Shown: positions 6,623-25,440 of the stretch, piece after piece
How positions within the stretch are numbered: position 1 is the first letter of the stretch
Layout: every line of letters starts with the position of its first letter
Origin: an uncultured bacterium
GTDB taxonomy: Bacteria; Patescibacteriota; Minisyncoccia; Moranbacterales; GWC2-37-73
NCBI GenBank assembly: GCA_903824515.1
Contig: CAIJXA010000079.1
Location: 1 to 36,266, forward strand
Direction: 5' to 3'
Length of the DNA: 36,266 nt
The notes under the pieces: model-generated
The model's input: the letters and a program-made list of their open reading frames with translations, nothing else
What the model was told of the DNA's origin: nothing
The model's database searches: none
Position numbers and translations under genes: made by a program

Positions 6623-6630
6623 ATTTAAAA

Positions 6631-6757
6631 AATTTTGAATTTAGAATTTTGAATGTCTACCTCATACCGCTAAGGCATTGGCTTAAATTTAACTTTTTTT
6701 AATCAATGCTTCAGACATTCAGGTATAAAAATTTTATTTGAAATTTGAAATTCAAAA
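6631..6757. repeat. Family C-like heptamer hairpin, adk-map spacer
   Basis: ttttgaatttagaattttgaatgtct...agacattca...gaaatttgaaattcaaaa. Confidence 0.65.
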
Positions 6758-7396
6758 TTAGATCTGCCGTATAATATCCTCGAAAACCGCCTCCATTGGC
6801 CTGTTTCCATCAACCTCAATCAGTATTCCCTTGTCGCGATAGTGGCTGATAACGGGAACCGTGACCTCGTAGAAAGTCTTCAGGCGCTTTGCGATGCCAT
6901 CTGGGGTATCATCTCCACGTTGAGTAATTAGGCCACCGCAAATTGGACATATATCATGTTGAGATTGAATATGCTTTCCCAACACAATATGGTTAAGGCA
7001 AACAGTGCATAAATAACGCTTTGTTATTCTTGCAACAGATTCATCATATGGCAACCTTATGTAAATAGCTTTATCAATTGATCTGCCATCAGCTTTCATT
7101 AATTTTTCAACAGGATCAATTTGGCCAATTGTTCGCGGTGCGCTATCAAGAATAACTCCCTTTTCAATTGAGATTTTTTTCAGGCATTCCTGCAAAGTTG
7201 TAACTGTAATATCATCAGGAACCATTTCCTTTTGATCATCAAATTTTTTTACTATTTTTCCAAGCTCAGTGTCTCCTCTTCCCATATCACGAAAAATCTG
7301 TCCGGTTTCGATATGGGACAGATCAAATTTTTCAGCCAGCATGTCGGCCTGTGTCCCCTTTCCGCTTCCCTGAGGACCAAAGATAATTAAATTCAT
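6758..7396 (-). CDS. adk: Adenylate kinase (Zn-binding LID)
   Basis: GPQGSGKGTQ P-loop, CxxC...CxxC LID, RGDD; located after secY. Confidence 0.93.
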   Translation of the reverse strand: MNLIIFGPQGSGKGTQADMLAEKFDLSHIETGQIFRDMGRGDTELGKIVKKFDDQKEMVPDDITVTTLQECLKKISIEKGVILDSAPRTIGQIDPVEKLMKADGRSIDKAIYIRLPYDESVARITKRYLCTVCLNHIVLGKHIQSQHDICPICGGLITQRGDDTPDGIAKRLKTFYEVTVPVISHYRDKGILIEVDGNRPMEAVFEDIIRQI

Positions 7397-7422
7397 TAAA
7401 TTAAAAAAATAATATTTTTTAA

Positions 7423-7535
7423 AATTTTCAATTCACAATTTTCAAATAATTTTCAATGAATTAATTTCAATCATTTAGTCATTTAGATTTTATTGAAAAT
7501 TGTGACTTGGAAATTGGAAATTACCGCGAAGCGGG
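7423..7535. repeat. Family C heptamer hairpin, secY-adk spacer, plus ccgcgaagcgg mini-hairpin
   Basis: aattttcaattcacaattttcaa...ttgaaaattgtgacttggaaattggaaatt. Confidence 0.7.
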
Positions 7536-8807
7536 CTAGAATCCTTCATAGTCACGCATCACCAATTGACCCTCAATTTGCTTAATTGTTTCAATCACGA
7601 CTGAAACAACGATTAGGATGCTGGTTCCACCAATTCGCAGTGTTTGAATATTAGTCATCCCTTGAATAATAAAAGGCAGAACTGCAATTGCGCCAAGAAA
7701 TAATGCGCCAGCTAAGGTTATCCTATTCATTATTTTATACAAATAATCTGCTGTATTTTTTCCCGGTCGAATCCCTGGAATATATCCTCCTTGTTTTTGA
7801 AGATTTTCAGAAATTTTCACTGGATCGAAAACAACTGCGGTATAAAAATATGTAAACAAAACAATCAAAACAAAATACATACTGCCATAAAAAAATTGAT
7901 TTTGAAACAAACTGTTAACGTTAGTTGCAATATGTGCCACTGTCTGATTGCTAGCTCGCATCAAAAAAGTCGCAATCATGCCAGGAAAAAGCATAATTGA
8001 CATTGCAAAAATAATTGGGATAACCCCAGCTTGATTAACTCGCAGTGGCAAGTGAGATGAAGCACCTCCATAGGTATTGTCGCCATGAACACGTTTTGCA
8101 TATGAAACGGCAATATTGCGCTGTCCTTCAGTAACTAAAACCACCCCAGCTATTGTTATCAGCATTACAACAAAAATAATAGCGTAAGTGAAAAATTGAG
8201 AAGAATCAAATGTCAAAAAAAGCTTCGAGATTGATGACGGCAAGCTACTCACAATGCCAGCAAAAATGATAAGTGAAACACCATTGCCAATTCCTTTTTC
8301 AGTGATAAGTTCACCCAACCACATAAGGAAAATAGTTCCGGTAGTGGCTATCAGAACAAGCACTGCTAAATTGAAAGGCGACAAAGTTCCAATAACGTTT
8401 TGCGATCGAAGCAAAGTAACTAAACCAAAAGTCTGCATTATCGCAAGCGGAACAGTGAGCCACCTAGTCCACATGTTGAATTTTTGCCTGCCAGCTTCAC
8501 CTTCTTCCTTATAAATCTGCTCTATACTAGGAACTATCATTGTCAAAAGCTGCATAATAATAGAAGCTGTGATATATGGACCGACTCCCAACATCACTAT
8601 TGAAATATTGGTCAAGCCTCCGCCGGAAAAAACATTCAGCATTCCAAGGAGCTGATTACCATCAAAAAGTCTCCTGAGCTGCTCCGTGTCAACACCCGGA
8701 AGTGGGATATTAGCTGCGATACGGAAAACAATAAGAACTCCAAAGATAAAAAGGATTTTATCGCGGAGTTCTCTTATTTTGAAAATTTGTGTTATTTTGT
8801 CCAACAT
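7536..8807 (-). CDS. secY: Preprotein translocase subunit SecY
   Basis: LGVGPYITASII, GIGNGVSLII, AGVIPIIFA, IPGIRPG, GGTSILIVV. Confidence 0.98.
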   Translation of the reverse strand: MLDKITQIFKIRELRDKILFIFGVLIVFRIAANIPLPGVDTEQLRRLFDGNQLLGMLNVFSGGGLTNISIVMLGVGPYITASIIMQLLTMIVPSIEQIYKEEGEAGRQKFNMWTRWLTVPLAIMQTFGLVTLLRSQNVIGTLSPFNLAVLVLIATTGTIFLMWLGELITEKGIGNGVSLIIFAGIVSSLPSSISKLFLTFDSSQFFTYAIIFVVMLITIAGVVLVTEGQRNIAVSYAKRVHGDNTYGGASSHLPLRVNQAGVIPIIFAMSIMLFPGMIATFLMRASNQTVAHIATNVNSLFQNQFFYGSMYFVLIVLFTYFYTAVVFDPVKISENLQKQGGYIPGIRPGKNTADYLYKIMNRITLAGALFLGAIAVLPFIIQGMTNIQTLRIGGTSILIVVSVVIETIKQIEGQLVMRDYEGF

Positions 8808-8827
8808 ATTAAGCAGATTCTTAGAAT

Positions 8828-8898
8828 TTAGCTTCTCAACTTTTCAGGAATACGTAGGTTTTCAGTTCTTTTCTAAAAAGCTAACGCCTAAGAAGCTA
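8828..8898. repeat. Family E hairpin (ttagcttct/agaagctaa), rplO-secY spacer
   Basis: ttagcttctcaacttttcaggaatacg...ctaaaaagctaacgcctaagaagcta; arms match those flanking the methyltransferase. Confidence 0.7.
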
Positions 8899-8902
8899 TT
8901 AA

Positions 8903-9340
8903 CTATTCCAGAATTTTTCCACCTGCTTTCATAATAGCATCTTTAGCAGTTTGTGAAAGTAGAAGTTCGCTGTTAATAGAAAGTTTTTTTGTAAGCTCCC
9001 CAGTTGATAAAATTTTTACACCATCCTTTGAGTCCTTCTTTGAAATAACTTTTGCAGCTACAAGAGTTTCAATCGAAATAACATCTCCGTTTTTAAAATT
9101 TTTCTCAAGATCGAAAATTTTCACCACTGTTTTCTTTGGAGTTCGAGATTTGAATCCTCGCACTTTCTTAAGACGTTCGGTTAGGGAAGATCTTCCTCCT
9201 TCAAACAAAGGGTCAATAGCTGCTCCAGATCTTGCTTTTTGACCTTTATTTCCACGACCTGAATATGTACCGCGTTTTCCTCCGCGACCAACGGTCTTTT
9301 TTGGTTTTCTCTTCTTGAGAGTAAGTTGATGAATTTGCAT
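8903..9340 (-). CDS. rplO: 50S ribosomal protein L15
   Basis: GRGGKRGTYSGRGNKGQKARSG, FEGG; synteny. Confidence 0.97.
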   Translation of the reverse strand: MQIHQLTLKKRKPKKTVGRGGKRGTYSGRGNKGQKARSGAAIDPLFEGGRSSLTERLKKVRGFKSRTPKKTVVKIFDLEKNFKNGDVISIETLVAAKVISKKDSKDGVKILSTGELTKKLSINSELLLSQTAKDAIMKAGGKILE

Positions 9341-9349
9341 ATGTTTATC

Positions 9350-9420
9350 GTTCTAATTGTTATAATTGTTCTATGCGTTCTAGTTGTTTTTTCGTTTACA
9401 ACAGTTACAACATTTAGAAC
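9350..9420 (-). repeat. Family A 9-mer-periodic hairpin, copy 1 (rpsE-rplO)
   Basis: gttctaattgttataattgtt...acaacagttacaacatttagaac; 5 homologous copies. Confidence 0.85.
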
Positions 9421-9430
9421 ATAACTACCT

Positions 9431-9976
9431 CTAAGCTTCTTTAGTAACCCCCTCTTTGGCTATTTCTTTAACAACTTCTTTTGCCACAACAACTTCGGTC
9501 TTAATCCTGGGTTCTTTCAAGCTTCGTAACGCCTCGATGGTTGCTCTAGCTACATTCAATTTATTTGAAGTCCCCAATGACTTAGAAACAATATCCCGAA
9601 TACCAACCAAATCAACTACAGCCCTAACTGCACCACCAGCAATAACCCCTCTTCCTTCCGGGGCCGGTTTCAAAAGAATTTTTGCACTGCCCATTTTCAT
9701 TTTAACATCATGGGGAATAGTGTTTGCGGATAGTTTAACCGTGATCATGCATTTTTTAGCATCATTATAGGCTTTCTGGATTGCATCAGAAACATCGGAT
9801 CCCTTTGCCACTCCGACACCAACCTGTCCTTTACGATTGCCAATCACGAGTGTTGCGCGAAAACGGAATCGCCTTCCACCCTTAACCACACGAGTAACTC
9901 TAGCCAAATCCAAAAGCTTCTGCTCAAATTCTGGCTTTTCTCTTCTTATTGGTTTTTTTCCTGATCTTTTGTCCAT
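9431..9976 (-). CDS. rpsE: 30S ribosomal protein S5
   Basis: RVTRVVKGGRRFRF, GVIAGGAVR. Confidence 0.98.
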   Translation of the reverse strand: MDKRSGKKPIRREKPEFEQKLLDLARVTRVVKGGRRFRFRATLVIGNRKGQVGVGVAKGSDVSDAIQKAYNDAKKCMITVKLSANTIPHDVKMKMGSAKILLKPAPEGRGVIAGGAVRAVVDLVGIRDIVSKSLGTSNKLNVARATIEALRSLKEPRIKTEVVVAKEVVKEIAKEGVTKEA

Positions 9977-9986
9977 AATATTATAA

Positions 9987-10078
9987 ATCTCTAATTAACG
10001 CTAATCTTATCACTAATTATCTCTGATGTTTTATAATTATTCGCGAACATTTGAGAAAATTCGAATCGATTCGCGATT
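9987..10078. repeat. Degenerate ~10-mer periodic hairpin, rplR-rpsE spacer
   Basis: ctaattaacgctaat...cactaatt / attcgcgaacatttgagaaaattcgaatcgattcgcg. Confidence 0.5.
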
Positions 10079-10085
10079 TATATCC

Positions 10086-10436
10086 TTAAAATTTGAGTCC
10101 GCCTTCTCGAGCACCATCCGCCAGTGCTTTAATTTTTCCATGGTATTGATATCCCGATCTGTCAAATGTTACAGTCTCAATCTTCAAAGCAAGGCATTTT
10201 TCCGCAATTAATTTTCCAACTGCCAATGATCCATCAATGGTATTTGAAGCCTTTTTGATTTCTGAAAGTTTTGCACTTGCAAGAGTTTTTCCAGAAATAT
10301 CATCAATAACCTGAGCATAAATCCCCTTTAAACTCTTAAAAACTGAGAGTCTTGGGCGCTCAGCGTTACCTGAAATTTTTGCGCGTACGCGACGCTTTCT
10401 TTGCAATCGATTGCTATTGTTGCTTATTTTTTTCAT
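10086..10436 (-). CDS. rplR: 50S ribosomal protein L18
   Basis: RPRLSVFKS, FDRSGYQYHGKIKALAD; start reset to ATG 10436. Confidence 0.97.
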   Translation of the reverse strand: MKKISNNSNRLQRKRRVRAKISGNAERPRLSVFKSLKGIYAQVIDDISGKTLASAKLSEIKKASNTIDGSLAVGKLIAEKCLALKIETVTFDRSGYQYHGKIKALADGAREGGLKF

Positions 10437-10442
10437 AATATA

Positions 10443-10510
10443 TCGTGAAACGTAGAGCGCGTAGCGTGAAGCGTTTTGCATTCCCACGTTATGCGTTATG
10501 CGTTATGCAA
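10443..10510. repeat. Family D-like heptamer hairpin, rplF-rplR spacer
   Basis: cgtgaaa cgtagag cgcgtag cgtgaag ... (cgttatg)x3. Confidence 0.75.
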
Positions 10511-10511
10511 T

Positions 10512-11048
10512 TTACTTCGATGATTTCTTTCCTTCTTTTCTTCTTACATGCTCTCCTACATATTTAAATCCCTTGCCTTTATATGGTTCTACAGGTTTAA
10601 GCGCTCTAATGTTCGCAGAAAATTGTCCCACCTCATGCTTATCAATACCCGAAACAGTCATCGTGTTTCCCTCAATCACAACTTCAATTCCGGTTGGAAT
10701 TTCAACCTCCACCGGATGAGAAAATCCAAGTGCAAGTGTAATTTTTCTTCCAGCTAGTGCCATACGAAAACCAACACCATTGAGTTCGAGTTGTTTTTTG
10801 AATCCAACTGTCACACCCTCAAACATGTTCCCAATAATTCTTGCAGTGGTACCCCAAATTGCCGGAGCATTTTTACCTTTACCAATCTTTTCAACAAGAA
10901 TATTTTCCGGGGTAATTTCAATAGCAACGTCCAAATGATGCTGAAAAGTAAGATTACCCTTTGGTCCCTTAACGGAAACCAAATTATTATCCACATTAAT
11001 AGTCACACCCTGCGGGATAACTATAGGTTTTTTTCCAATTCTACTCAT
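10512..11048 (-). CDS. rplF: 50S ribosomal protein L6
   Basis: MSRIGKKP, LGFSHPV, EPYKGKG. Confidence 0.98.
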   Translation of the reverse strand: MSRIGKKPIVIPQGVTINVDNNLVSVKGPKGNLTFQHHLDVAIEITPENILVEKIGKGKNAPAIWGTTARIIGNMFEGVTVGFKKQLELNGVGFRMALAGRKITLALGFSHPVEVEIPTGIEVVIEGNTMTVSGIDKHEVGQFSANIRALKPVEPYKGKGFKYVGEHVRRKEGKKSSK

Positions 11049-11060
11049 ACTATTTTTATC

Positions 11061-11130
11061 GTTCTAATTGTTATGATGTTTTGACATGTTCTAGTTGCAT
11101 CTCATCTACAACAATTACAACGATTAGAAC
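11061..11130 (-). repeat. Family A hairpin, copy 2 (rpsH-rplF)
   Basis: gttctaattgttatg...acaacaattacaacgattagaac. Confidence 0.85.
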
Positions 11131-11147
11131 ACTAGCACGTTTATTTA

Positions 11148-11552
11148 TTACCAAACTTCACAGATTATCTCCCCTCCTAAGCCTGATTTCTTTGCATTAT
11201 CTCCAGTCATCATGCCCCTTGAGGTAGAAACAATAGAAATTCCGTATCCGTTTTTAATTCTCTTTATATCAGTCTTTTTGACATAAATTCTCTGACCTTG
11301 TCTACTTACTCGTTTAATCTCTCTGATTGCCGGATTTTTTTCAGTATTCGAAATAACCTCATATCTTAAGGTTATTTTTAGCACTGGGAACTTATCCCCA
11401 TCTTCCTTCTTTACTGATTGGATAAAATTTCTTTGCTGCAAAATTTGAGCAATTGAATATTTTAATTTCGAAAACGGAACAGAAACTTCTTTATGTTTCG
11501 CTCGTTGTGCATTTCGAATTCTTGTAAGCATGTCTGCTATTGGATCTAACAT
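11148..11552 (-). CDS. rpsH: 30S ribosomal protein S8
   Basis: DPIADMLTRIRNA, STSRGMM, GGEIIC. Confidence 0.98.
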   Translation of the reverse strand: MLDPIADMLTRIRNAQRAKHKEVSVPFSKLKYSIAQILQQRNFIQSVKKEDGDKFPVLKITLRYEVISNTEKNPAIREIKRVSRQGQRIYVKKTDIKRIKNGYGISIVSTSRGMMTGDNAKKSGLGGEIICEVW

Positions 11553-11586
11553 ATTCTAATTCTTTATCCTAATTATATATAAATTA

Positions 11587-11663
11587 ACCGATACGAATCT
11601 ACGAATTAAATGCGAATCTACGAAACTTTTCGTATGTGCGCTTTCGTAGCGCGCTTTCGGATA
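11587..11663 (-). repeat. Family B rod-like element, copy 1 (rpsN-rpsH)
   Basis: accgatacgaatctacgaa...tgcgctttcgtagcgcgctttcggata; abuts the rpsN stop. Confidence 0.85.
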
Positions 11664-11849
11664 CTACCAACTACTCTTTTTAACTCCGGGCAATTCACCT
11701 TTGCTTGCTAACTCGCGAAAGCAAATTCTGCAAATATCAAATGCTCGAAGATAACCATGTTTTCGACCACAACGCCAACACCTTCGAACTTCTCGTGTCG
11801 AAAATTTTGGTTTCTTCTCTGCTCTAGCTTGGGTAGATGTTTTTGCCAT
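11664..11849 (-). CDS. rpsN: 30S ribosomal protein S14 (type Z)
   Basis: RCWRCGR...CRICFRE...GVKKSSW. Confidence 0.97.
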
Positions 11850-11866
11850 ATTTCTTTAGTCAATAC

Positions 11867-12415
11867 TTATTCGCTTTTTAGCGGAAATCCTAATAATTTA
11901 AATAATTCCAATCCTTGTTGCTGTGAAACTGCGCTTGTTGAGATTGTTACCTGAAGTCCGAAAGTATGCTTCACGCGTTCTGGGGAAATCTCGGGAAAAA
12001 TCAAATGTTCTCTTATTCCGATATTGATATTTCCGCTTGTATCAACTGACTTTCTCCCAATTCCCTGAAAATCTCGAGTTCTTGGAAGGGTTGCCACAAT
12101 CAATCTGTCGATGAATTGCCACATTCGAGCTCCTCGCAAAGTTACTTTCACACCAACTTCCATTCCTTCTCTAGTCTTGAAACCTGCGATAGCTTTCTTA
12201 GCTTTCGTTTTAACTGGTTTTTGTCCGGTAATTACAGTCAAAGAATTTACTACTTCCTCTATTTTATCATTTTCTTTCACAATCTTTCCAATGCCAACAT
12301 TGACCACGACTTTGAGAATTCGAGGCACCGCCATGACACTTTTATATCCGAATTTCTTTTGCATTTCAATTGCAACTGTCTTCGCATATTTTTCTTTTGC
12401 TGGAATTATTTTCAT
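11867..12415 (-). CDS. rplE: 50S ribosomal protein L5
   Basis: ITGQKP, KVTLRG, PRTRDFQG, IFPEI. Confidence 0.98.
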   Translation of the reverse strand: MKIIPAKEKYAKTVAIEMQKKFGYKSVMAVPRILKVVVNVGIGKIVKENDKIEEVVNSLTVITGQKPVKTKAKKAIAGFKTREGMEVGVKVTLRGARMWQFIDRLIVATLPRTRDFQGIGRKSVDTSGNINIGIREHLIFPEISPERVKHTFGLQVTISTSAVSQQQGLELFKLLGFPLKSE

Positions 12416-12425
12416 ATAATTTATC

Positions 12426-12495
12426 GCTCTAATTGTTATAATTGTTCTATGCGTTCTAGTTGTCTTTCATTTATAACATTTACAACAGTTAGAAC
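12426..12495 (-). repeat. Family A hairpin, copy 3 (rplX-rplE)
   Basis: gctctaattgttataattgttctatgcgttctagttg...tacaacagttagaac. Confidence 0.85.
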
Positions 12496-12507
12496 ATTAA
12501 AACGTTT

Positions 12508-12813
12508 CTAGATTTCCTTGCCACATTTCTTACAAACACGTACTTTTTTTTCTTTAACAAAAGCATAGGATGTTCTCGTTGCTTTACCACATGAAGGGCA
12601 AATCAACATTGCATTTGAAGCATCAAATGGGGCTGCTATTTCAACTCGCTGTCCCTTCTCACCCTCCCTGCGAGCTTTTTTGTGCTTCTTTACAATATTC
12701 ATTTTTTCGACTACAATTTTTCCCTCGCTCGGAACAGTTCGCAAGACTTTTCCCTGCTTACCCTTGTCCTTTCCGGCAATTTTTTTTACGAGGTCTCCTT
12801 TTTTAATTCTCAT
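12508..12813 (-). CDS. rplX: 50S ribosomal protein L24
   Basis: IKKGD..IAGKDKGKQG KOW motif. Confidence 0.97.
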   Translation of the reverse strand: MRIKKGDLVKKIAGKDKGKQGKVLRTVPSEGKIVVEKMNIVKKHKKARREGEKGQRVEIAAPFDASNAMLICPSCGKATRTSYAFVKEKKVRVCKKCGKEI

Positions 12814-12824
12814 AATATTTTAGC

Positions 12825-12897
12825 GTTCTAATTGTTATAATTGATCTACTTGTTCTAGTTGTTTTCACTCACTTATAACAATTACAACAGTTAGAAC
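12825..12897 (-). repeat. Family A hairpin, copy 4 (rplN-rplX)
   Basis: gttctaattgttataattg...tataacaattacaacagttagaac. Confidence 0.85.
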
Positions 12898-12908
12898 ATT
12901 ATTTCAGT

Positions 12909-13274
12909 CTACAATACTTCCGGTGCCAATGAAACTATTTTAGCAAATCCTTTTTCACGAAGCTCCCTAGCTATTGGTCCGAAAATACGAGTTCCTTTTG
13001 GTTCCTTACCATCAACAATCACAGCAGCATTTTCATCAAAACGAATATATGAACCATCTTTTCTTCTATAAGCCTTTCTCTGTCTGACTACAACTGCTCG
13101 AATCTTATCTCCCTTTTTAACTAAGCCTCTTGGTTCAGCTGATTTTACACTGCAAACAATAATATCACCAACGTAGGCGTAACGTCTGCGACTGCCACCA
13201 AGAATCTTGAAGCATTCGATTACTTTTGCTCCCGAATTGTCTGCTGCTCTTAATCTTGTTTCTGCCTGAATCAT
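12909..13274 (-). CDS. rplN: 50S ribosomal protein L14
   Basis: [21 protein letters not shown]. Confidence 0.98.
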
Positions 13275-13283
13275 ATAGTTTTT

Positions 13284-13343
13284 GTTCTAATTATTATAAT
13301 TGTGCTACACGTTCTATCTGTTTTCATTTACAACAATCAGAAC
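13284..13343 (-). repeat. Family A hairpin, copy 5 (rpsQ-rplN), one unit shorter
   Basis: gttctaattattataattgtgctacacgttcta...tacaacaatcagaac. Confidence 0.8.
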
Positions 13344-13348
13344 GACGT

Positions 13349-13588
13349 TTATGCTAATGTGTGATTTTTATCCTTGCTCAATGGCCGACACTGCACAAAT
13401 TCTACCGAATCTCCAATCTTGTGCTTATTTTCACTATCATGAACCTTGTATTTTTTGGTTGAGCGATACTTTTTCAGGTATTTTGGATGAGTTTTAAGAG
13501 ACTGCACAGCAACAACTATAGTCTTATCCATTGAGTCACTTACAACCTTACCCTTTTTCGTTGCTAATTTTTTAGTAGTGTTTGTCAT
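13349..13588 (-). CDS. rpsQ: 30S ribosomal protein S17
   Basis: GKVVSDSMDKTIVV, HPKY, CRPLSKDK. Confidence 0.97.
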   Translation of the reverse strand: MTNTTKKLATKKGKVVSDSMDKTIVVAVQSLKTHPKYLKKYRSTKKYKVHDSENKHKIGDSVEFVQCRPLSKDKNHTLA

Positions 13589-13639
13589 ATCCTAATTTTT
13601 ATCCAAATTACATTCTAATTATATCTAAACTTATATATT

Positions 13640-13828
13640 TTATGCCTCTAATTCTTTTAAAATAGTTAGTGCTCGAGCAATATCCTTTTTAATCGCCCGA
13701 TACTCTCGATGATTTTTAAGCTGACGAGCTGCAATATCAAATCTGAGCTTAACTGCTTGAGTTTGTTTCTCAGCAATAAGCTTCTTGATCTGCTCAATAT
13801 TCAAATCTCTAATTTCCAAAATTTTCAT
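13640..13828 (-). CDS. rpmC: 50S ribosomal protein L29
   Basis: LRF...QLKN...KKDIARALT; synteny. Confidence 0.93.
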   Translation of the reverse strand: MKILEIRDLNIEQIKKLIAEKQTQAVKLRFDIAARQLKNHREYRAIKKDIARALTILKELEA

Positions 13829-13837
13829 ATAATTATA

Positions 13838-13912
13838 ACCGATACGAAACTATGAATTTAGTGCGAATTTACGAAATTTCTAATGTGCGCTTTCGTAGTG
13901 CGCTTTCGGATA
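13838..13912 (-). repeat. Family B element, copy 2 (rplP-rpmC)
   Basis: accgatacgaaactatgaa...tgcgctttcgtagtgcgctttcggata; abuts the rplP stop. Confidence 0.85.
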
Positions 13913-14326: not shown

Positions 14327-14368
14327 ATGCGTAGACGTAATTCAAAATGTAAATATATAATCCCTCAA

Positions 14369-15022: not shown

Positions 15023-15027
15023 ATCTT

Positions 15028-15140
15028 ATTTCAATTTCTAATTTCTAATTTCTAATTTCTAAACAATTTCTAATTTCAAAATTTTAAAATTGAAACATTG
15101 AAAATTGATTGAAAATTGAAAATTGAAAATTGAAAATTTT
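15028..15140. repeat. Family C heptamer hairpin (aatttct)n...(ttgaaaa)n, rplV-rpsC spacer
   Basis: Tandem aatttct units facing tandem ttgaaaa units; nearly identical to 24751-24866. Confidence 0.85.
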
Positions 15141-15214
15141 ACACTCTCTTTTTAATTAAAATTAAACTACAACAATACACTATAAATTATTCACAAATAC
15201 ATTTAACAACTATA

Positions 15215-15775: not shown

Positions 15776-15787
15776 ATAATCATTAAT

Positions 15788-15856
15788 CATGGAACATGGA
15801 GCATGGAACGTGCGTCCCTTTGTATTCTGCTCTATGCTTTATGCTCTATGTTATGT
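15788..15856. repeat. Family D heptamer hairpin, rpsS-rplV spacer
   Basis: catggaacatggagcatggaac...ctctatgctttatgctctatgttatg. Confidence 0.8.
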
Positions 15857-15862
15857 GGTTTA

Positions 15863-16207: not shown

Positions 16208-16215
16208 ATTTTTTT

Positions 16216-16293
16216 ACCGATACGAATCTACGAATTAATTACAAATCTACGAAATTTTTCGAATGGGCGCTTTTGTGGTGCGCTTTTCGGATG
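16216..16293 (-). repeat. Family B element, copy 3 (rplB-rpsS)
   Basis: accgatacgaatctacgaattaa...gtgcgcttttcggatg; abuts the rplB stop. Confidence 0.85.
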
Positions 16294-17124: not shown

Positions 17125-17129
17125 AATAT

Positions 17130-17237
17130 ATCAGTAATCAGTAATCAGTAATCAGTAATCAAGTATTTAAATACTTTCACCGCTCATTGTATTCTGATTG
17201 TTTTATTGTCTCTTGTTTCTTGTCTATTGAATATTGA
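17130..17237. repeat. Heptamer repeat/hairpin (atcagta)x4, rplW-rplB spacer
   Basis: atcagta tandem facing a degenerate 7-periodic tattctgattgttttattgtctcttgtttcttg arm. Confidence 0.7.
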
Positions 17238-17621: not shown

Positions 17622-17641
17622 ATATTTAATAAATCTCTAAA

Positions 17642-18271: not shown

Positions 18272-18330
18272 AATATTCGCTTCGCTAAATTATAAATTTC
18301 AAATTTTAAATTTCAAATTATTGTATTTTT

Positions 18331-18891
18331 CTATCCGTGAACCTCAACGATTCTTCCAACAACTCCAGGCACCGAGCCAAGAACGCCAATGAGATTTTTT
18401 TCAATATTCAAATAAACAACTTTCACGTTCTTCACTGATTTCCTTTTTCCACCCATGCGTCCAGCCATTCTTTTTCCTTTGATAACATGCTGTGGTTGTT
18501 GAGCACCGATTGATCCAGGAGCTCGTAAATCATGCTTATGTCCATGCGAAGCAGGAGAACCAGCAAACCCATGACGCTTCACACCTCCCTGAAATCCCTT
18601 AGCTTTAGCGATACCACTAACTTTAACCAAATCTCCAATTGCAAAATTTTCAACGGTAACCTTATCACCAACTGCCAATGCCACTACATCTTCACTGCGA
18701 AATTCTTTCTTGTGAGTAACTTTTTTTGTCTTCTTAGTTGCAAGTTGAACAGCGCTATAGCCATCTCTCTGCGACGTTCTCACGATAGACACAGTGTTTG
18801 GCTCACATTCAATCAAGGTAATATTAAGAGCTCCCTGTTGCTGATCATACAGAGTTGTCATCCCCATTTTTTTTCCTAAAATATTTTTCAT
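18331..18891 (-). CDS. rplC: 50S ribosomal protein L3 (short form)
   Basis: ILGKKMGMT, KGFQGGVKRH, PGSIG, GKRMAGRMG; start reset to ATG 18891. Confidence 0.96.
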   Translation of the reverse strand: MKNILGKKMGMTTLYDQQQGALNITLIECEPNTVSIVRTSQRDGYSAVQLATKKTKKVTHKKEFRSEDVVALAVGDKVTVENFAIGDLVKVSGIAKAKGFQGGVKRHGFAGSPASHGHKHDLRAPGSIGAQQPQHVIKGKRMAGRMGGKRKSVKNVKVVYLNIEKNLIGVLGSVPGVVGRIVEVHG

Positions 18892-18918
18892 ATCTGTAAT
18901 TATACTTATATTTCGAAC

Positions 18919-19000
18919 AAAAAACTGGCTTCTCAGCCAGCATGGTCCGAGGAGCAATTCCTCGACTTAGCTAATTGAGTATCCAACTTTGCAGTAGGAC
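18919..19000 (-). promoter_or_regulatory. Structured rplC leader ending in an intrinsic terminator (candidate attenuator)
   Basis: Hairpins UCCUACU-GCAA-AGUUGGA, GAGGA-AUUGC-UCCUC and CUGGCU-GAGA-AGCCAG-U6. Confidence 0.6.
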
Positions 19001-19034
19001 TTTAACTAGTTTTTTTCTTTTTTCTAACTTATCT

Positions 19035-19063
19035 ATTTTAAATCAATTCTCAAATTTATGCAA
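19035..19063 (-). promoter_or_regulatory. Sigma70-like promoter upstream of rplC
   Basis: TTGCAT-17 nt-TAAAAT. Confidence 0.55.
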
Positions 19064-19067
19064 GCCC

Positions 19068-19143
19068 CGACGATATTTACCATTCAAACATACCTACTAA
19101 TTTGTGATTCGTATGGTAGCTTTCGTAGTACGCCTTTTACATG
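19068..19143 (-). repeat. Family B element, diverged copy 4 (after rpsJ)
   Basis: ttcgtatggtagctttcgtagtacgccttttacatg abutting the rpsJ stop. Confidence 0.55.
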
Positions 19144-19476: not shown

Positions 19477-19569
19477 CTGGGTGGATTGAGATAAAAATTA
19501 CTATTTAAACTTTGTTCTAGGCAACACAGGTAGACATAATCGTTTATGTCTACATAGTAAACTAAAACT

Positions 19570-20763: not shown

Positions 20764-20907
20764 ATTAATTTTTTCGCCTCTGCTTGGGGCTATTTTTGTC
20801 CCAAAACTGGCTGATACTTAAAGATTGTTTATTAATAAAAATTTTAACACGATATTCCAAAAAAAGCAATTAAAAAATTCCTTTCAAGGAAAATCGAATA
20901 CTTGTTT

Positions 20908-20935
20908 ATTCTACACGATAAATAAATCCTGTCAA
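20908..20935 (-). promoter_or_regulatory. tuf promoter
   Basis: TTGACA-16 nt-TAGAAT. Confidence 0.65.
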
Positions 20936-20945
20936 GAGCCGTGAA

Positions 20946-20980
20946 TTAGCTTCTTAGTCATTAGCTTCTTAGCTTTTAGA
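20946..20980. repeat. Family E arm downstream of the methyltransferase
   Basis: ttagcttcttag x2; reverse complement at 21970-21981. Confidence 0.7.
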
Positions 20981-21120
20981 TTTGGCTTAAATAAGGGATT
21001 TATTTGATTTTTTCCTCACACAACCATTCTATGCAAAAATTCTTACCCTTAAGGGTTATTTCAAGCAATTTTATCTAAATTCATAATCTAGATAATATTT
21101 TTAAAAAATTGTGAGTTTTT

Positions 21121-21864
21121 TCAAAAATCTTTCGGGGTAAATGGGAGGCGGATTATTTTTGGCAAACTCTCATTTTTGACATCGGCTGACTTACGCATGC
21201 AAAAAATGAATTTCCCTGAAAACAAATTTGGCCAGAGGTTAAGCAGGGCAGCTCGCAAAAATGTTGGAGTAAGGCGCGTTGGAATCAAGCCCCCACCCAT
21301 AAAATTCAATTGCAATTGCTCAACCTGCCAATTGAACGATTGAAACATTTCTCCAAGATCTTTCAGACTAAAGAAACGAACATGTGAATAATCCCAGGAT
21401 TTCTGACCATACTGCACATTGTCCCAATGAACAATGCCTTTTCCAAAAAACATTCGCAGACGCTGCCTAAGATCAAAATGATTCGGCACCCCAAAAATTA
21501 GCAGGCCACCACTTTTCAAAACCAGTTCAGATTGCTTCAGGATATGCGTCGGGTTATAAAGATGTTCAGCAACATCAGTGCAAATGACCATATCGAAATA
21601 ATCTGGTGCTACCTTCCAAACCAGGGAGAGGTCTTGCTGAATATGGGTGTAACTATCCTTTTTTTCACTGGCAATTTGAGCATCGATTCCAACAACTTCA
21701 TGTCTAAGACCTACAAGATATTCGGCTAGCTTGCCATTTCCACATCCCACATCTAAGATCCTCAATTTTTCACCTTTTTTGAAATCATAAAAACGCCTAA
21801 TTTTTTCATAGGCGCTTTTTCCTGAAAAGGTGGCTCTATTTTCGTGAAACTGCATTTCATTCAT
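21121..21864 (-). CDS. Class I SAM-dependent methyltransferase, between fusA and tuf
   Basis: ILDVGCGNG motif I, FDMVICTDVAEH, LKSGGLLIFGVPN; ATG at 21864. Confidence 0.88.
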   Translation of the reverse strand: MNEMQFHENRATFSGKSAYEKIRRFYDFKKGEKLRILDVGCGNGKLAEYLVGLRHEVVGIDAQIASEKKDSYTHIQQDLSLVWKVAPDYFDMVICTDVAEHLYNPTHILKQSELVLKSGGLLIFGVPNHFDLRQRLRMFFGKGIVHWDNVQYGQKSWDYSHVRFFSLKDLGEMFQSFNWQVEQLQLNFMGGGLIPTRLTPTFLRAALLNLWPNLFSGKFIFCMRKSADVKNESLPKIIRLPFTPKDF

Positions 21865-21903
21865 ATGTTGCAATTATACAAAGTTCCCAAAAATAACACA
21901 ACT

Positions 21904-21932
21904 AAAAAGCAGCCTCTCTCGAGGCTGCTTTT
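21904..21932 (-). terminator. Intrinsic (bidirectional-type) terminator after fusA
   Basis: aaaaagcagcctc-tctc-gaggctgctttt. Confidence 0.8.
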
Positions 21933-21952
21933 AAAAAAGTGCATTTGAATTT

Positions 21953-21987
21953 CGTATTTTCCTGAGAAACTAAGAAGCTAACGCCTG
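21953..21987. repeat. Family E arm between fusA and the methyltransferase
   Basis: cgtattttcctgagaaactaagaagctaacgcct; homologous to both arms of 8828-8898. Confidence 0.7.
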
Positions 21988-21999
21988 GTAAGTTGCCCC

Positions 22000-24084: not shown

Positions 24085-24092
24085 AAAAAATT

Positions 24093-24204
24093 AATTTCTA
24101 ATTTCTAATTTCTAATTTCTAATCAAATTCCAATATTCCAATGTTCAAAACATGCAGGAATTCAAAATTTATTCAAAATTCAAAATTCAAAATTCAAAAT
24201 TTTA
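24093..24204. repeat. Family C heptamer hairpin, rpsG-fusA spacer
   Basis: (aatttct)x4...(ttcaaaa)x4. Confidence 0.8.
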
Positions 24205-24273
24205 ATATTATTTTTTTTGATTATAAAACAAAGATAGAAACCCCAAACTAGCAGGAGTTTCTATCGCAAGAAT

Positions 24274-24741
24274 CTATGCAAAGTGAGCAAAGGCTTTGTT
24301 TGCTTCAGCCATTCGATGAGTGTCGTCTCTTTTCTTCATTGCGCTTCCAACCTTGTTTGAGGCATCAATGAATTCATCTGCCATTTTTTCAGCCATTTTC
24401 TTGCCCTTCTTTGCTCTGCAAGCTGCCAGGATCCAACGCACTGCCAAAGTCTGACGGCGTTCTCCAGAAACTTGAATCGGAACTTGATAGTTTGCGCCGC
24501 CAACTCTTTTTGATTTCAATTCCAAAAGAGGAGAAACATTTTTGATTGCTTGTTCAAAAACATTCAGACCGCCTTTTTTGGTGCGTTCATGAATAATATC
24601 AAATGATTCATAGATAACTTTTTCGGCAATACTTCGTTTGCCGTCTTGCAAAATTTTTCCAATAAAACGACCCACCAAAACATTTCCATATCTCGAGTCA
24701 GCCTTCCATTGTTTCTTATATACTCTTTTTCTTCGTGCCAT
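24274..24741 (-). CDS. rpsG: 30S ribosomal protein S7
   Basis: RVGGANYQVP, HRMAEANKAFAHF. Confidence 0.98.
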   Translation of the reverse strand: MARRKRVYKKQWKADSRYGNVLVGRFIGKILQDGKRSIAEKVIYESFDIIHERTKKGGLNVFEQAIKNVSPLLELKSKRVGGANYQVPIQVSGERRQTLAVRWILAACRAKKGKKMAEKMADEFIDASNKVGSAMKKRDDTHRMAEANKAFAHFA

Positions 24742-24750
24742 ATTTTCCTT

Positions 24751-24866
24751 AATTTCTAATTTCTAATTTCTAATTTCTAAATAATTTCTAATGCTTTAAT
24801 TTCAAAATTGAAAATTTAAACATTTTAAAATTGATTGAAAATTGAAAATTGAAAATTGAAAATTTT
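24751..24866. repeat. Family C heptamer hairpin, rpsL-rpsG spacer
   Basis: (aatttct)x4...(ttgaaaa)x4. Confidence 0.85.
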
Positions 24867-24929
24867 AAGCCCTAATCTTTAATTATAATCTTATTTAATT
24901 CAAATAATTCTCTTAAATCTGCGACAGAA

Positions 24930-25352
24930 CTACTCGGTCTTAGCTTTTGGTCTCTTAGCTCCGTATTTGCTGCGGCCTTGGTTTCGTTTGTCAACGCCGG
25001 CGCTGTCCAAAACTCCACGCACAATGTGATAGCGCACACCTGGAAGATCTTTCACTCTTCCTCCGCGAATCATCACGATTGAATGCTCTTGCAAGTTATG
25101 TCCAACTCCCGGGATATAGGCAGTGACTTCCATACCATTGGTCAAACGAACACGAGCGATTTTTCGCAGCGCTGAGTTCGGTTTCTTTGGCGTGGTAGTG
25201 CTGACTTTGATGCAAACTCCACGCTTAAACGGACTGGCCGTTTGTTTCGGTCGATTTTGCAAGGTGTTGAAAATTGTCATCATTGCAGGTGACTTTGATT
25301 TTTTGGTTGACGATGTGCGTCCTCTCTTCACTAGCTGATTTATTGTTGGCAT
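24930..25352 (-). CDS. rpsL: 30S ribosomal protein S12
   Basis: [27 protein letters not shown]. Confidence 0.99.
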
Positions 25353-25367
25353 ATTACGCTTCGCTTT

Positions 25368-25440
25368 AATTTCTAATTTCTAATTTCTAATTTCTAATCA
25401 ATTTTCAATGATTAAATTTCAAAAACCAAAATTGAAAAAT
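25368..25440. repeat. Family C heptamer element in the rpsL 5' leader
   Basis: (aatttct)x4 aatcaattttcaatg...aaattgaaaa. Confidence 0.75.

Follow-up and report, generated by a model that had tools for sequence, protein, structure and literature searches.

What fills the long spacers that separate the genes of the str-S10-spc ribosomal cluster in this bacterium, and why are they kept? The window (the whole 36,266-nt stretch analysed) derives from a Moranbacteria (Parcubacteria/CPR) MAG with a streamlined genome of 1.26 Mb, and it carries the cluster with every gene on the minus strand. Gene identities were confirmed with NCBIfam; the 62-aa rpmC ORF had no NCBIfam match at E<=1e-15, a SAM-methyltransferase-like ORF (MTase) lies between fusA and tuf, and rpmD is absent between rpsE and rplO in the window. 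Among the 27 junctions from rpsL to map, 21 measure at least 60 nt: 20 of 60-250 nt, in agreement with an earlier note that had counted about 20, and one of 357 nt. Shorter are rplD/rplW (20 nt), rplE/rpsN (17 nt), rpsC/rplP (42 nt) and rpmC/rpsQ (51 nt), which that note had named as the only short junctions, together with rplF/rplR (24 nt) and rplC/rplD (59 nt), which it had overlooked. Over the genome as a whole, co-directional spacers have a median length of 91.5 nt.

Here we propose, with confidence a little better than even, that these spacers are filled by DNA-level, self-propagating palindromes of the foldback type, similar to MITEs and Rickettsia palindromic elements (RPEs) and tolerated by the cell. 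The elements look like fast-turning-over selfish DNA, and their tandem-repeat-armed palindrome form in r-protein junctions is not previously described.

Architecture and folding of the elements

Most long junctions hold inverted repeats, roughly 100 bases in size, in which each arm consists of three to four tandem copies of a 7-11-nt unit; the elements studied are periodic and rich in AT, measure 70-190 nt and belong to at least six sequence families between rpsL and map (Table 1). The periodic arms described in the earlier note were borne out by TRF, which returned perfect or near-perfect arrays with periods of 7, 8, 9 and 10-11 in the spacers (e.g., TAATTTC x4.6 at 24092-24123, 24750-24780 and 25367-25398; ATCAGTA x4.6 at 17130-17161), and the palindromy by inverted-repeat (IR) alignment, which scored above dinucleotide shuffles (z>3) for 12 of the 23 cluster spacers as against 3% of length-matched coding controls. 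Because such elements recur in many independent MAGs of different studies, they are no assembly artefact. Three long spacers were rejected as periodic elements: the fusA/MTase spacer has a hairpin of the ordinary terminator-like kind, and tuf/rpsJ and rpsJ/rplC contain conserved leader-like sequence without periodicity.

Table 1. Features of the spacers in the window, by junction in order of transcription
Junction	Spacer (nt)	Family or type	Positions	Strand	Features
upstream of rpsL		A (heptamer)	25363..25445	-	3' arm TAGAAAT x4, 11 nt before ATG; reads TAATTTC on + at 25367-25398
rpsL/rpsG	188	A	24742..24929	-	AATTTTC x4 (5' arm, 24809-24864), TAGAAAT x4 (3' arm, 24751-24804); IR z 5.2; RNAfold z +0.19
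rpsG/fusA	189	A variant	24085..24273	-	AATTTTG x4 (5' arm, 24149-24213), TAGAAAT x4 (3' arm, 24085-24145); second, GC-rich hairpin near 24233-24265; spacer RNAfold z -3.8
fusA/MTase			21874..21999	-	TTAGCTT-type half array, then terminator-like hairpin and T run (21905-21932)
MTase/tuf	357		20764..21120	-	AAGCTAA-type tandem array (20945-20983); best promoter-like site of region (predicted), 20908-20935
rplC/rplD	59	one-arm half element	18272..18330	-	single heptamer array, period 7/14, 18286-18321
rplW/rplB	113		17125..17237	-	3' arm TACTGAT x4.6 (17130-17161), ending 5 nt before ATG, unit also on three other contigs; degenerate 5' arm (17197-17229); RNAfold z -2.5
rplB/rpsS	86	B short form	16208..16293	-	conserved terminus TTCGTAGATTCGTATCGG at end; RNAfold z -0.35
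rpsS/rplV	72	E	15791..15862	-	CATAGAG-type 5' arm (15834-15852), GTTCCATG-type 3' arm (15793-15811); RNAfold z -3.8
rplV/rpsC	192	A	15023..15214	-	5' arm 15090-15138, 3' arm 15033-15079
rplP/rpmC	84	B short form	13829..13912	-
rpmC/rpsQ	51		13589..13639	-	AATTAGGAT-type 3' arm alone
rpsQ/rplN	74	C	13275..13348	-	9-nt period; GTTCTAA/GTTGTAA arms vs AATTATAAC/AATTAGAAC; RNAfold z -3.7
rplN/rplX	95	C	12814..12908	-	RNAfold z -4.1
rplX/rplE	92	C	12416..12507	-	RNAfold z -4.2
rpsN/rpsH	111	B short form (11581-11663)	11553..11663	-	B element upstream of leader-proximal stretch (about 11553-11583) common to relatives
rpsH/rplF	99	C	11049..11147	-	RNAfold z -3.1
rplF/rplR	24	one-arm remnant	10487..10511	-	CATAACG x3 array alone
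rplR/rpsE	109	F	9977..10085	-	CGAAT units x4, then ATTAG units x4, period 10-11
rpsE/rplO	90	C	9341..9430	-	RNAfold z -4.6
rplO/secY	95	D	8808..8902	-	TTAGCTT-type 5' arm vs AAGCTAA-type 3' arm, whole spacer; RNAfold z -2.2
secY/adk	139	A-like heptamer palindrome	7397..7535	-	arms 7418-7465 and 7473-7520; RNAfold z -3.7
adk/map	135	A-like heptamer arms	6623..6757	-	arms 6631-6687 and 6698-6752, non-repetitive centre; RNAfold z -3.2

Across 34 r-protein loci, 174 of 264 long spacers (66%) carry an inverted repeat that passes z>3. The suggestion that a stop codon and the ATG following it meet at the stem base holds: by the medians, the stem starts 4 nt past the stop and ends 8 nt short of the ATG, and in 122 of these 174 stems neither distance exceeds 15 nt. 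One-armed remnants are common, the array being confined to one half in 96 of the 264. Period 7 accounts for 104 of 207 arrays, copy number peaks at four regardless of unit length, and the unit sequences are very numerous, with few copies each. Genome-wide, 20 arrays come no further than 10 nt from a start codon and 23 no further than that from a stop codon, against 12.9 expected for each (sd 3.0). The lack of Shine-Dalgarno (SD) motifs remarked on for this region extends to the whole genome, as GGAG/GAGG/AGGA occurs 3-12 nt upstream of 8.9% of 1229 crude gene calls and no G enrichment was found upstream of their starts.

Folding gave a divided picture. On the sense strand, 16 of the 26 spacers folded with RNAfold reached z<=-2 relative to shuffles; the energies of the heptamer family at rpsL/rpsG and rplV/rpsC, of family B at rplB/rpsS, rplP/rpmC and rpsN/rpsH, and of family F at rplR/rpsE were no better than those of shuffles (z -0.9 to +0.4). 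The sense fold was the stronger in 14 of the 26, and stems had no sense-strand excess of G·U over A·C (264 to 255 and, in a second count, 302 to 362). Covariation was not supported, RNAalifold finding compensatory changes at 1 of 9 pairs in family F, whose consensus folds at only -3.2 kcal/mol, and at 1 of 23 in family C.

Copies across the genome

Family A is dispersed over 24 contigs and family B over 17, while all five copies of family C lie within the str-S10-spc operon. Family F occupies 22 places in the r-protein loci compared, always in sense orientation (26 nhmmer matches, the other four being minus-strand matches at four of the same places); the 12 copies in L002 have arms, loop and ends in common. 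Stretches of at least 40 nt are shared with another spacer by 298 of 897 spacers. The earlier note had envisaged elements that target gene boundaries of highly expressed operons without disrupting them. Boundaries are indeed occupied and genes unbroken, by several families. Targeting by expression was not upheld: genome-wide, 24% of the 779 spacers with lengths of 40-300 nt contain a significant inverted repeat (co-directional 25%, convergent 24%, divergent 17%), and the r-protein cluster (12/23) is enriched only about two-fold over these.

Family B has a conserved terminus, TTCGTAG(A/T)TTCG(T/C)ATCGG, found in inverted pairs, and its outermost copy lies at most 12 nt from an ORF end, start or stop alike, at 23 of 27 intergenic places. 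Within the order, 41 of 151 genomes carry the family, as do 32 of 76 genera. It also enters genes: two variable linkers of uvrC, whose ORF is 576 aa here and 434-481 aa in six genomes belonging to other genera, contain in-frame B arms together with a heptamer array, and polA contains B arm-like sequence in frame. Judged by its sequence, family B behaves like a MITE. Among the roles proposed earlier, that of empty versions of mobile cassettes fits best, since long forms (about 230 nt) and short forms (about 85 nt) have the same terminal inverted repeats; no ORF-bearing copy of the family was found in this genome. Nor was any target-site duplication seen at the ends of family B or F elements, or an autonomous copy or cognate transposase identified in the genome, which has three Y1_Tnp matches and one rve match, none adjoining an element, and no DDE_Tnp_1, DDE_3 or TnpB. 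Y1_Tnp tracks family B weakly (29 of 41 genomes with the family, 57 of 110 without), and Y1 matches are missing from B-rich genomes such as G097 and G145. One Y1_Tnp-like protein gene (C78) is flanked by GC-rich perfect palindromes of its own.

Turnover and retention among relatives

The same architecture is found at r-protein junctions of relatives and at one distant Patescibacteria locus (L038), and is common to at least ten unrelated unit sequences. Comparison of equivalent junctions, as the earlier note had proposed, shows elements filling them in some relatives and short spacers in others: those of at least 50 nt number 18 of 22 in the window, 20 of 21 in L031 and 22 of 22 in L011, against 1 of 21 in L020 and 1 of 22 in L033, and spacers at equivalent junctions of related Moranbacteria measure 1-30 nt. 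The rpmC/rpsQ junction of L031 has a complete two-armed element.

Between L002 and L003, whose genes are 93-99% identical in nucleotides, 10 of the 17 spacers cannot be aligned (49-61%); the replacement runs exactly from stop to start and twice takes in the 3' end of the upstream gene. Likewise, 122 of 203 orthologous spacer pairs in the 34 loci are less than 60% identical although their flanks are 80-90% identical. An element retained at a given junction is better conserved than the genes beside it: L002 and L031 agree at 99% in the secY/adk spacer (genes 77% and 70%), the rplR/rpsE element is 89% identical to its L002 copy (genes 79-81%), and the rplV/rpsC arms are 96-100% identical (genes about 80%), with the orthologous element preserving its 4+4 units in the window, L003 and L011. 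Conservation across genera is seen for units such as AATTTTC/TAGAAAT and for the terminus of family B.

Origin and tolerance of the elements

We favour self-propagating DNA because of the copy-and-paste pattern of families F, C, A and B, the spacer turnover and the clade pattern, and because of the MITE-like behaviour of family B, the in-gene copies, the lack of an RNA-strand signature, the occurrence in all spacer classes, and the stem-base geometry combined with SD poverty. How the elements move, why they are tolerated and what they may do as RNA we infer from these observations. Many families of one architecture would copy and paste themselves within the genome, often into neighbouring junctions, and rapidly replace one another in a lineage whose ancestral spacers were probably only about 5-30 nt. 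Since insertion into essential coding sequence would be lethal, surviving copies would be those filling the stop-to-start gap, where they would be co-transcribed with the operon. They are probably tolerated because the RNA hairpin would leave no more than about 12 nt between the stop codon before it and the AUG after it. A ribosome terminating over the start of the 5' arm would open the end of the 3' arm ahead of the AUG. As SD pairing is hardly used, insertion would moreover destroy no spacing-critical signal, and the A/T-rich 3' end of the element may act as a leader.

The single orientation of all 22 family F copies counts against the selfish reading, as do the missing target-site duplication, autonomous copy and transposase and the weak Y1 link; the exact stop-to-start replacement is without explanation under it. 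The conservation of retained elements beyond their flanks, with 4+4 units kept, argues against a purely selfish, decaying element, and complete junction filling (L011) in a streamlined genome is easier to understand if there is some benefit.

Such a benefit is central to an alternative that we consider rather unlikely, in which the elements are intercistronic RNA hairpins serving the host, either through strict translational coupling, in which only termination of a ribosome at the stem base would unmask the initiation region, or through RNase III processing and protection from exonucleases. Were only structure selected, sequences would drift, and stems would grow cheaply through short-unit slippage. 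Consistent with this are the stem-base geometry, the almost SD-free genome, an RNase III gene (235 bits against a cut-off of 166), an architecture held across unrelated units as far as L038, the conservation of retained elements, near saturation in L011 and L031, and the uniform orientation of family F. Yet sense and antisense strands fold equally well and G·U pairs are not in excess, the folds of families A, B and F do not surpass those of shuffles, related Moranbacteria cope with minimal spacers, and one-armed remnants are common; in divergent and convergent spacers and inside uvrC and polA, a coupling role is impossible. It is improbable that the units are instead binding-site arrays recognised by an RNA protein (S1, cold-shock or KH-type) or a DNA protein, with palindromy secondary: more than ten unrelated units with one architecture fit no single sequence-specific binder, the model does not require mutually complementary arms, and the genome-wide positional enrichment near starts and stops, though in its favour, is modest. 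One-armed arrays directly before starts, the copy-number peak at four for any unit length, the units and B terminus kept across genera, and heptamer repeats known from RBS-poor leaders, including those of r-protein operons (PMC4679880), are consistent with such binding. Very improbable, finally, is a functionless by-product of slippage and template switching in AT-rich spacers without transfer, for which the dominance of period 7, the heptamer as the commonest long simple-sequence repeat reported in prokaryotes (PMC4679880), the many units with few copies each and the array within uvrC would speak. Whole elements including loops and ends recur at other junctions and contigs, and the family B terminus in 32 genera, neither of which independent slippage yields; for families A, B, C and F this explanation is largely refuted by the non-repetitive parts common to copies.

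Comparison with known systems

In eukaryotic foldback transposons, which are kilobase-scale and linked to known transposases, long inverted arms composed of short tandem sub-repeats enclose a variable centre; the likeness here is one of arm architecture alone, and homology is not claimed. The early mRNA of phage T7 contains a few intercistronic RNase III hairpins, unique in sequence, whose processing was shown experimentally. The present elements resemble them in position: they lie between the cistrons of a polycistronic RNA, and the ends of the genes adjoin the base of the stem. RPEs are palindromic repeats of a small genome, found in intergenic regions and in frame inside protein genes, a double location matched here by B arms in the uvrC and polA linkers. 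They form a single set of related families whose arms lack tandem sub-repeats, and saturation of ribosomal-protein operon junctions is not known for them. As with REP/BIME sequences, extragenic palindromes able to form mRNA stem-loops lie inside operons and Y1_Tnp-like proteins are encoded; unlike REP/BIME with their RAYT (Y1) transposases, the elements are AT-rich and periodic, with lengths of 70-190 nt, flank no Y1 gene and, in family B, are only weakly linked to Y1 presence.

Like the Correia/NEMIS MITEs of Neisseria, they are small, ORF-less, multi-copy, mostly intergenic and bounded by inverted repeats, and are co-transcribed with neighbours and fold into long hairpins (predicted here); RNase III is described as cutting Correia transcripts at the inverted repeats (PMC10969869). 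They differ in having no detected target-site duplication or parent insertion sequence, arms of 7-11-nt sub-repeats, many unrelated families with one architecture, and whole-spacer replacement from stop to start. TAACTGA heptamer repeats, described just upstream of starts in Beggiatoaceae, cyanobacteria and Bacteroidetes with a proposed binding role, are given there as of unknown function, a mobile origin being considered (PMC4679880). Both they and the present elements place tandem heptamers a few nucleotides from starts, in RBS-poor leaders and within r-protein operons. In contrast to that one unit, nearly always in direct repeats (PMC4679880 gives 169 direct sets and a single indirect repeat), the elements here comprise many units, usually in complementary palindromic pairs.

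Architecture of the junction spacers

No part of bacterial genomes is more conserved or more tightly packed than the str-S10-spc cluster, which also serves as the backbone of CPR phylogenies. Here we report that almost every junction of this cluster holds a fast-changing palindrome of about 100 nt, which is unexpected for a streamlined genome of 1.26 Mb. The MAG (G000) comprises 137 contigs with 38% G+C, and the closest public-genome relatives of the window, its contig C79, are labelled Candidatus Moranbacteria or Moraniibacteriota (Parcubacteria/Patescibacteria). On the minus strand lie, in order, rpsL, rpsG, fusA, a SAM-methyltransferase-like ORF, tuf, rpsJ through rplO, secY, adk and map. 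Gene identities in the cluster match NCBIfam equivalogs; the 62-aa rpmC ORF had no NCBIfam match at the threshold set, and rpmD is absent between rpsE and rplO. As the earlier note had claimed, the junctions are long: 21 of the 27 between rpsL and map measure at least 60 nt (20 of 60-250 nt and one of 357 nt), and six are shorter.

The elements in these spacers are AT-rich and 70-190 nt in size. Most of the long spacers share a plan, which on the coding strand runs from the stop codon over a few bases into three or four tandem units of 7-11 nt, then through a loop into three or four tandem repeats of a roughly complementary unit, and ends a few bases short of the ATG. The window contains at least six sequence families, consistent with the several repeat families first proposed. 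Family A (four copies of AATTTTC paired with four of TAGAAAT) occupies rpsL/rpsG, rplV/rpsC and the region upstream of rpsL, with a variant at rpsG/fusA and looser versions at secY/adk and adk/map. Family B, a conserved element whose end is TTCGTAGATTCGTATCGG, lies at rplB/rpsS, rplP/rpmC and rpsN/rpsH; family C, built of 9-nt units, at five junctions from rpsQ to rplO; family D (TTAGCTT against AAGCTAA) at rplO/secY; family E (CATAGAG against GTTCCATG) at rpsS/rplV; and family F (CGAAT units against ATTAG units, period 10-11) at rplR/rpsE. The arms of families A, C, D and E extend over 19-59 aligned columns. One-armed remnants are found at rplC/rplD, rpmC/rpsQ and rplF/rplR, and three long spacers (tuf/rpsJ, rpsJ/rplC and fusA/methyltransferase) are not of the periodic type.

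Each spacer was scored by gapped inverted-repeat alignment against dinucleotide shuffles and against coding segments of equal length. Within the cluster, 12 of 23 spacers reached z>3 and 14 of 23 scored better than all 12 shuffles, as compared with 3% and 7%, respectively, of coding controls genome-wide. Folding energies gave a divided picture. RNAfold z was at or below -2 on the sense strand in 16 of 26 spacers, while families A, B and F folded no better than dinucleotide shuffles (z -0.9 to +0.4), which for these three families in part counts against the idea of the earlier note, by whose own terms folding no better than shuffled AT-rich spacers would speak against it. Family A is still non-random, with perfect tandem arrays and alignment scores of z 2.9-5.2; because shuffles of AU-rich heptamers fold about as well as the originals, energy z alone is a poor detector, and the alignment score was used for this reason. 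A search of the whole window against Rfam 15 (E<=1) returned a tRNA as its sole match, with no r-protein leader matched.

Stem geometry and translation context

The same scoring applied to 264 spacers of 60-260 nt from 34 loci, the survey of relatives, gave z>3 in 174 and beat all 10 shuffles in 192. Tandem arrays were present in both halves of 85 spacers, in one half only of 96 and in neither half of 83. Seven was the commonest array period (104 of 207 arrays in the 34 loci), and the number of unit copies peaked at four (84 arrays), followed by three (65). Median values over the 174 significant stems are 4 nt from the stop codon to the outermost pair and 8 nt from that pair to the ATG; in 122 stems neither distance exceeds 15 nt. 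The stem spans a median of 87% of the spacer. The suggestion that stop and AUG come together at the stem base is thus borne out.

The expected poverty in Shine-Dalgarno (SD) motifs was likewise found: an SD-like tetramer lies 3-12 nt upstream in 8.9% of 1229 called genes of G000, a value that is approximate, as are start codons and spacer lengths in all our genome-wide statistics, since genes were called crudely as longest ORFs. There was no G enrichment in the same 3-12 nt region of these 1229 calls; leaders are A-rich, and 55% of genes have T at position -1. The 3' end of 16S rRNA was not found in the assembly, so the anti-SD is not readable there. A gene for RNase III is present at C119:2452-3096. 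Three metatranscriptome runs contain 0.64-0.66 of the sampled words of window positions 9000-18500, and a DNA run of the same sample contains 0.66; this word share is no evidence for transcription, processing or habitat.

Turnover among relatives

The cluster was collected from 80 genomes and orthologous genes were located. Junctions of at least 50 nt number 18 of 22 in the window and are similarly frequent in several r-protein loci of relatives (L002, 18/21; L031, 20/21; L011, 22/22; L022, 18/22; L016, 17/22). In more distant Moranbacteria they number 1/21 (L020), 1/22 (L033) and 2/22 (L027), and the corresponding junctions there are 1-30 nt long. Long junctions reappear (19/22) in L038, a distant Patescibacteria locus with 50% S3 identity, where the spacers follow a like plan with GTTACAA-type heptamers as units.

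One pair of loci shows how the spacers change. Genes of L002 and L003 are 93-99% identical, whereas their 17 shared spacers divide into seven at 98-100% identity and ten that are unalignable (49-61%). At the swapped junctions identity stops at the stop codon and returns 1-7 nt before the ATG, except at rpsN/rpsH, where it returns 31 nt before the ATG and the leader is kept; two of the swaps also take in the final codons of the gene upstream. Across all locus pairs, 203 orthologous spacer pairs have flanks of 80-90% identity; of these, 122 are less than 60% identical, as low as spacers paired at random (mean 50%), and 19 are at least 75% identical. Like families sit at other junctions in other genomes, and individual loci show bursts of one family: family F at 12 places in L002, an ACGAAT/ATTAGGAT family at about a dozen junctions in L031, and a TAGTTAA/AACTAAT family at about nine in L011. 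Elements retained at a junction are more conserved than the flanking genes, which speaks against simple decay: L002 and L031 agree at 99% in the secY/adk spacer, against 77% and 70% in the flanking genes, and the rplV/rpsC arms of the window and L003 are 96-100% identical around a variable loop.

Distribution across the genome

The median co-directional spacer in G000 is 91.5 nt. Inverted repeats at z>3 occur in 24% of its 779 spacers of 40-300 nt (co-directional 25%, convergent 24%, divergent 17%), and 298 of 897 spacers hold a stretch of at least 40 nt common to another spacer. Family C is confined to this operon (five of five copies), family A is dispersed with 42 nhmmer matches on 24 contigs, and family B has 28 matches on 17. 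The earlier note had the elements targeting highly expressed operons; that idea was not upheld, since inverted repeats in all spacer classes make the phenomenon genome-wide, with the r-protein cluster enriched about two-fold. A link to gene boundaries survives in modest form: among 114 arrays in G000, 23 lie within 10 nt of a stop codon and 20 end at most 10 nt before a start, against 12.9 +/- 3.0 expected for each.

Family B can serve as a model for the dispersed elements. Its 18-nt terminus occurs 45 times in G000 at up to three substitutions, and at 23 of 27 intergenic places (list read manually) the outermost terminus lies at most 12 nt from an ORF end, start or stop. Termini form inverted pairs around 10-170 nt and bound short (about 85 nt) and long (about 230 nt) forms, the latter with a GC-rich, internally palindromic centre that contains no ORF. 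Of 151 genomes sampled from the order, 41, representing 32 of 76 genera, have the terminus, usually in multiple copies.

Nine terminus matches fall within called ORFs. Three short ORFs (56-61 aa) with B termini are probably spurious calls, and one match lies where the 5' end called for a methyltransferase gene reaches too far. Within uvrC, the conserved SRVASYFR motif is followed in frame by family B arm sequence, and the next linker is filled by another block, with two B arms and a fourfold GGAAATT array. Both blocks are absent from uvrC orthologues in six genomes of other genera (434-481 aa, as compared with 576 aa in G000), and genomes of the same genus have other insertions at those two positions, which marks these linkers as hotspots. 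A further in-frame match in polA was seen solely as a terminus match inside the ORF.

Nature of the elements

Our observations best fit small, self-propagating palindromic DNA elements whose arms consist of tandem sub-repeats, and the alternatives can be weighed against this reading. Structures selected as RNA on the sense strand would account for the stem geometry at the junctions. However, in stems read on the sense strand G·U and A·C oppositions number 264 to 255 in G000 and 302 to 362 in relatives, sense folding beats antisense in 14 of 26 spacers, and elements are also located in divergent and convergent spacers and inside genes, where an intercistronic role is impossible; the lack of G·U excess, the equal folding of both strands and these copies together argue for a palindrome at the DNA level. 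Compensatory double changes affect 1 of 9 pairs in family F and 1 of 23 in family C, with copies too alike for these counts to weigh either way. All 22 family F copies have one orientation, though they may be one local clone. That the spacers are promoters or terminators was also considered and dropped: consensus scans gave no enrichment, with 62 promoter-like sites against 52.1 +/- 6.5 and 13 terminator-like sites against 14.2 +/- 4.1 in shuffles, and a rho-independent terminator, a GC-rich stem with a T run, occurs within none of the periodic elements. Base frequencies upstream of starts contain no -10-like signal of leaderless promoters. Integron attC sites have RYYYAAC/GTTRRRY cores, which the element ends, judged by eye, do not fit.

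Among mobile elements, MITEs are likewise short, ORF-less, bounded by terminal inverted repeats and polymorphic in presence among close relatives. They differ in that inspection of family B and F copy ends reveals no target-site duplication here, and no parent insertion sequence or transposase with matching ends was found. G000, rated 99% complete, has Y1_Tnp at three places and rve at one, none beside an element; it gave no match to DDE_Tnp_1, DDE_3 or TnpB, and its paired family B termini enclose no ORF. REP/RAYT systems are a known parallel, but REP/BIME-RAYT elements are short (20-40 nt) GC-rich palindromes with a Y1 gene, unlike these AT-rich elements of 70-190 nt. Y1_Tnp occurs in 86 of 151 genomes of the order, and mobilisation of family B by a RAYT was set aside because the link is weak, Y1 occurring in 29 of the 41 family B genomes and in 57 of the 110 others (manual cross-reading). 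Carriage by phage was rejected as well, the B terminus being found in 0 viral contigs. Separate from the periodic elements, contig C78 of G000 has a classical REP-plus-RAYT arrangement, in which a GC-rich perfect palindrome that occurs in five spacers on four contigs flanks a Y1-like ORF.

Rickettsia palindromic elements behave as family B does in uvrC, sharing with it in-frame copies inside protein genes (here uvrC and, by terminus match, polA). Eukaryotic foldback elements and T7 RNase III sites are further parallels. Start-proximal TAACTGA heptamer repeats in RBS-poor leaders (PMC4679880) are another known parallel; of the 114 arrays here, 20 end at most 10 nt before a start. RNase III cuts transcripts of Correia/NEMIS MITEs (PMC10969869). 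Full-text searches of openly accessible articles yielded no account of such elements in CPR/Patescibacteria: a MITE survey (PMC11602168) lacks the words Patescibacteria, candidate phyla, ribosomal protein and tandem, and the accessible part of a preprint (10.64898/2026.09.15.751765) mentions inverted repeats solely as operator sites.

Significance

Self-propagating elements of this kind would have spread, in some Patescibacteria lineages, into spacers that were at first very short. It is plausible that the geometry of the hairpins, together with host translation that does not depend on SD pairing, renders them harmless between cistrons. That retained copies are more conserved than their flanks and that junctions are close to saturation would still allow for a secondary, useful role as RNA, in coupling or in processing. 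A bolder reading, which we consider rather improbable, is that Moranbacteria and other Patescibacteria possess an intercistronic cassette defined by structure and free in sequence, with four tandem units per arm, which is swapped exactly from stop to start and has been recruited as the standard link between cistrons in SD-independent translation. In such a cassette the terminating ribosome would melt the stem base and unmask the next start, possibly combined with cutting by RNase III. If true, it would represent both a novel type of mobile element that targets the boundaries of genes and a novel way to achieve polycistronic translation.

The cluster offers a natural experiment on the intercistronic load that an operon absorbs when translation is independent of SD pairing, and it opens hairpin-mediated translational coupling to direct testing. 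Small repeat elements are a large and so far undescribed burden of CPR genomes; about one third of G000 spacers share repeats, and such elements enter coding sequence too, as in uvrC and polA. In practical terms, the spacers are hypervariable strain markers, and in CPR MAGs they are a likely source of broken contigs and of wrongly placed start codons. The latter is illustrated by family E, whose 3' arm has in-frame ATGs into which automatic start calls can shift.

Further features of the window and related loci

Two of the non-periodic spacers, tuf/rpsJ and rpsJ/rplC, contain leader-like sequence conserved across relatives (see table). The tuf/rpsJ hairpin could represent either the leader of the S10 operon or the terminator of tuf. 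At rpsJ/rplC, the conserved motif and the hairpin after it may constitute an undescribed r-protein attenuator or leader, and the real rplC start is probably downstream of the called TTG. The stretch next to rpsH is a candidate conserved leader, perhaps an S8 autoregulatory site.

Positions of individual features, in the window unless another contig or locus is named
Feature	Position	Strand	Description
Array outside ribosomal cluster	148-176		Tandem 7-8-nt units
Array outside ribosomal cluster	1107-1133		Tandem 7-8-nt units
Array outside ribosomal cluster	2679-2713		Tandem 7-8-nt units
GC-rich repeat family	5763-5857		map/next ORF spacer; ...TTATCTAGCGAAGTGAGCG..., unlike the periodic AT-rich elements
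rpsH-proximal stretch	11553-11583	-	About 31 nt right before rpsH, TTTAAATATAATTAGGATAA(A/T)GAATTAGAAT; kept in window, L002, L003, L008, L011, L022 and L031, everything upstream swapped
Family E 3' arm	15791-15811		GTTCCATG repeats with in-frame ATGs; also L003 rplF/rplR
rpsJ/rplC motif	18924-19143	-	CTAGTTAAAGTCC...GGATACTCAATTAGCTA, conserved in L008, L011, L013 and L022
Terminator-like hairpin and T run	18924-18941		After the rpsJ/rplC motif, inside the TTG-started rplC ORF as called
tuf/rpsJ hairpin	19477-19569	-	Non-periodic, TATGTAGACATAA...TTATGTCTAC, kept with changes in L002 and L031
Promoter-like site	20908-20935		Before tuf; best of the region
SAM-dependent methyltransferase-like ORF	21121-21873		Inserted between fusA and tuf
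Terminator-like hairpin	21905-21932		After fusA; strong
Array outside ribosomal cluster	26511-26559		TTAACAAT, six copies
Array outside ribosomal cluster	26686-26719		Tandem 7-8-nt units
tRNA	32777-32847		Rfam match
Array outside ribosomal cluster	33684-33711		Tandem 7-8-nt units
RAYT-like ORF	G000 C78:16560-17140		Weak Y1_Tnp match; palindrome CTTAGGGACTAAGTCCCCAATTGGGGACTTAGTCCCTAAG on both sides and once within the ORF, interrupting it
uvrC	G000 C37:4824-6554; L082:525-2252 (C37:4824-6551)		In-frame family B arms
polA	L083:1-1983		In-frame B terminus match

Within positions 20764-21999 the methyltransferase-like ORF is bracketed by the terminator-like hairpin and the promoter-like site listed beside it. 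Tandem arrays similar to those of the cluster also flank genes elsewhere in the window, and the GC-rich repeat of the map spacer recurs on contigs C102, C104 and others of the genome and at rpsC/rplP of L022. Another conserved GC-rich insert, ending in ...GCTCATTTTTGTAGCTACTCGCTCCGCTCATAGACAA, is located at rplE/rpsN of L002 and L003 (166-170 nt) and at rpsQ/rplN and rplR/rpsE of L016.
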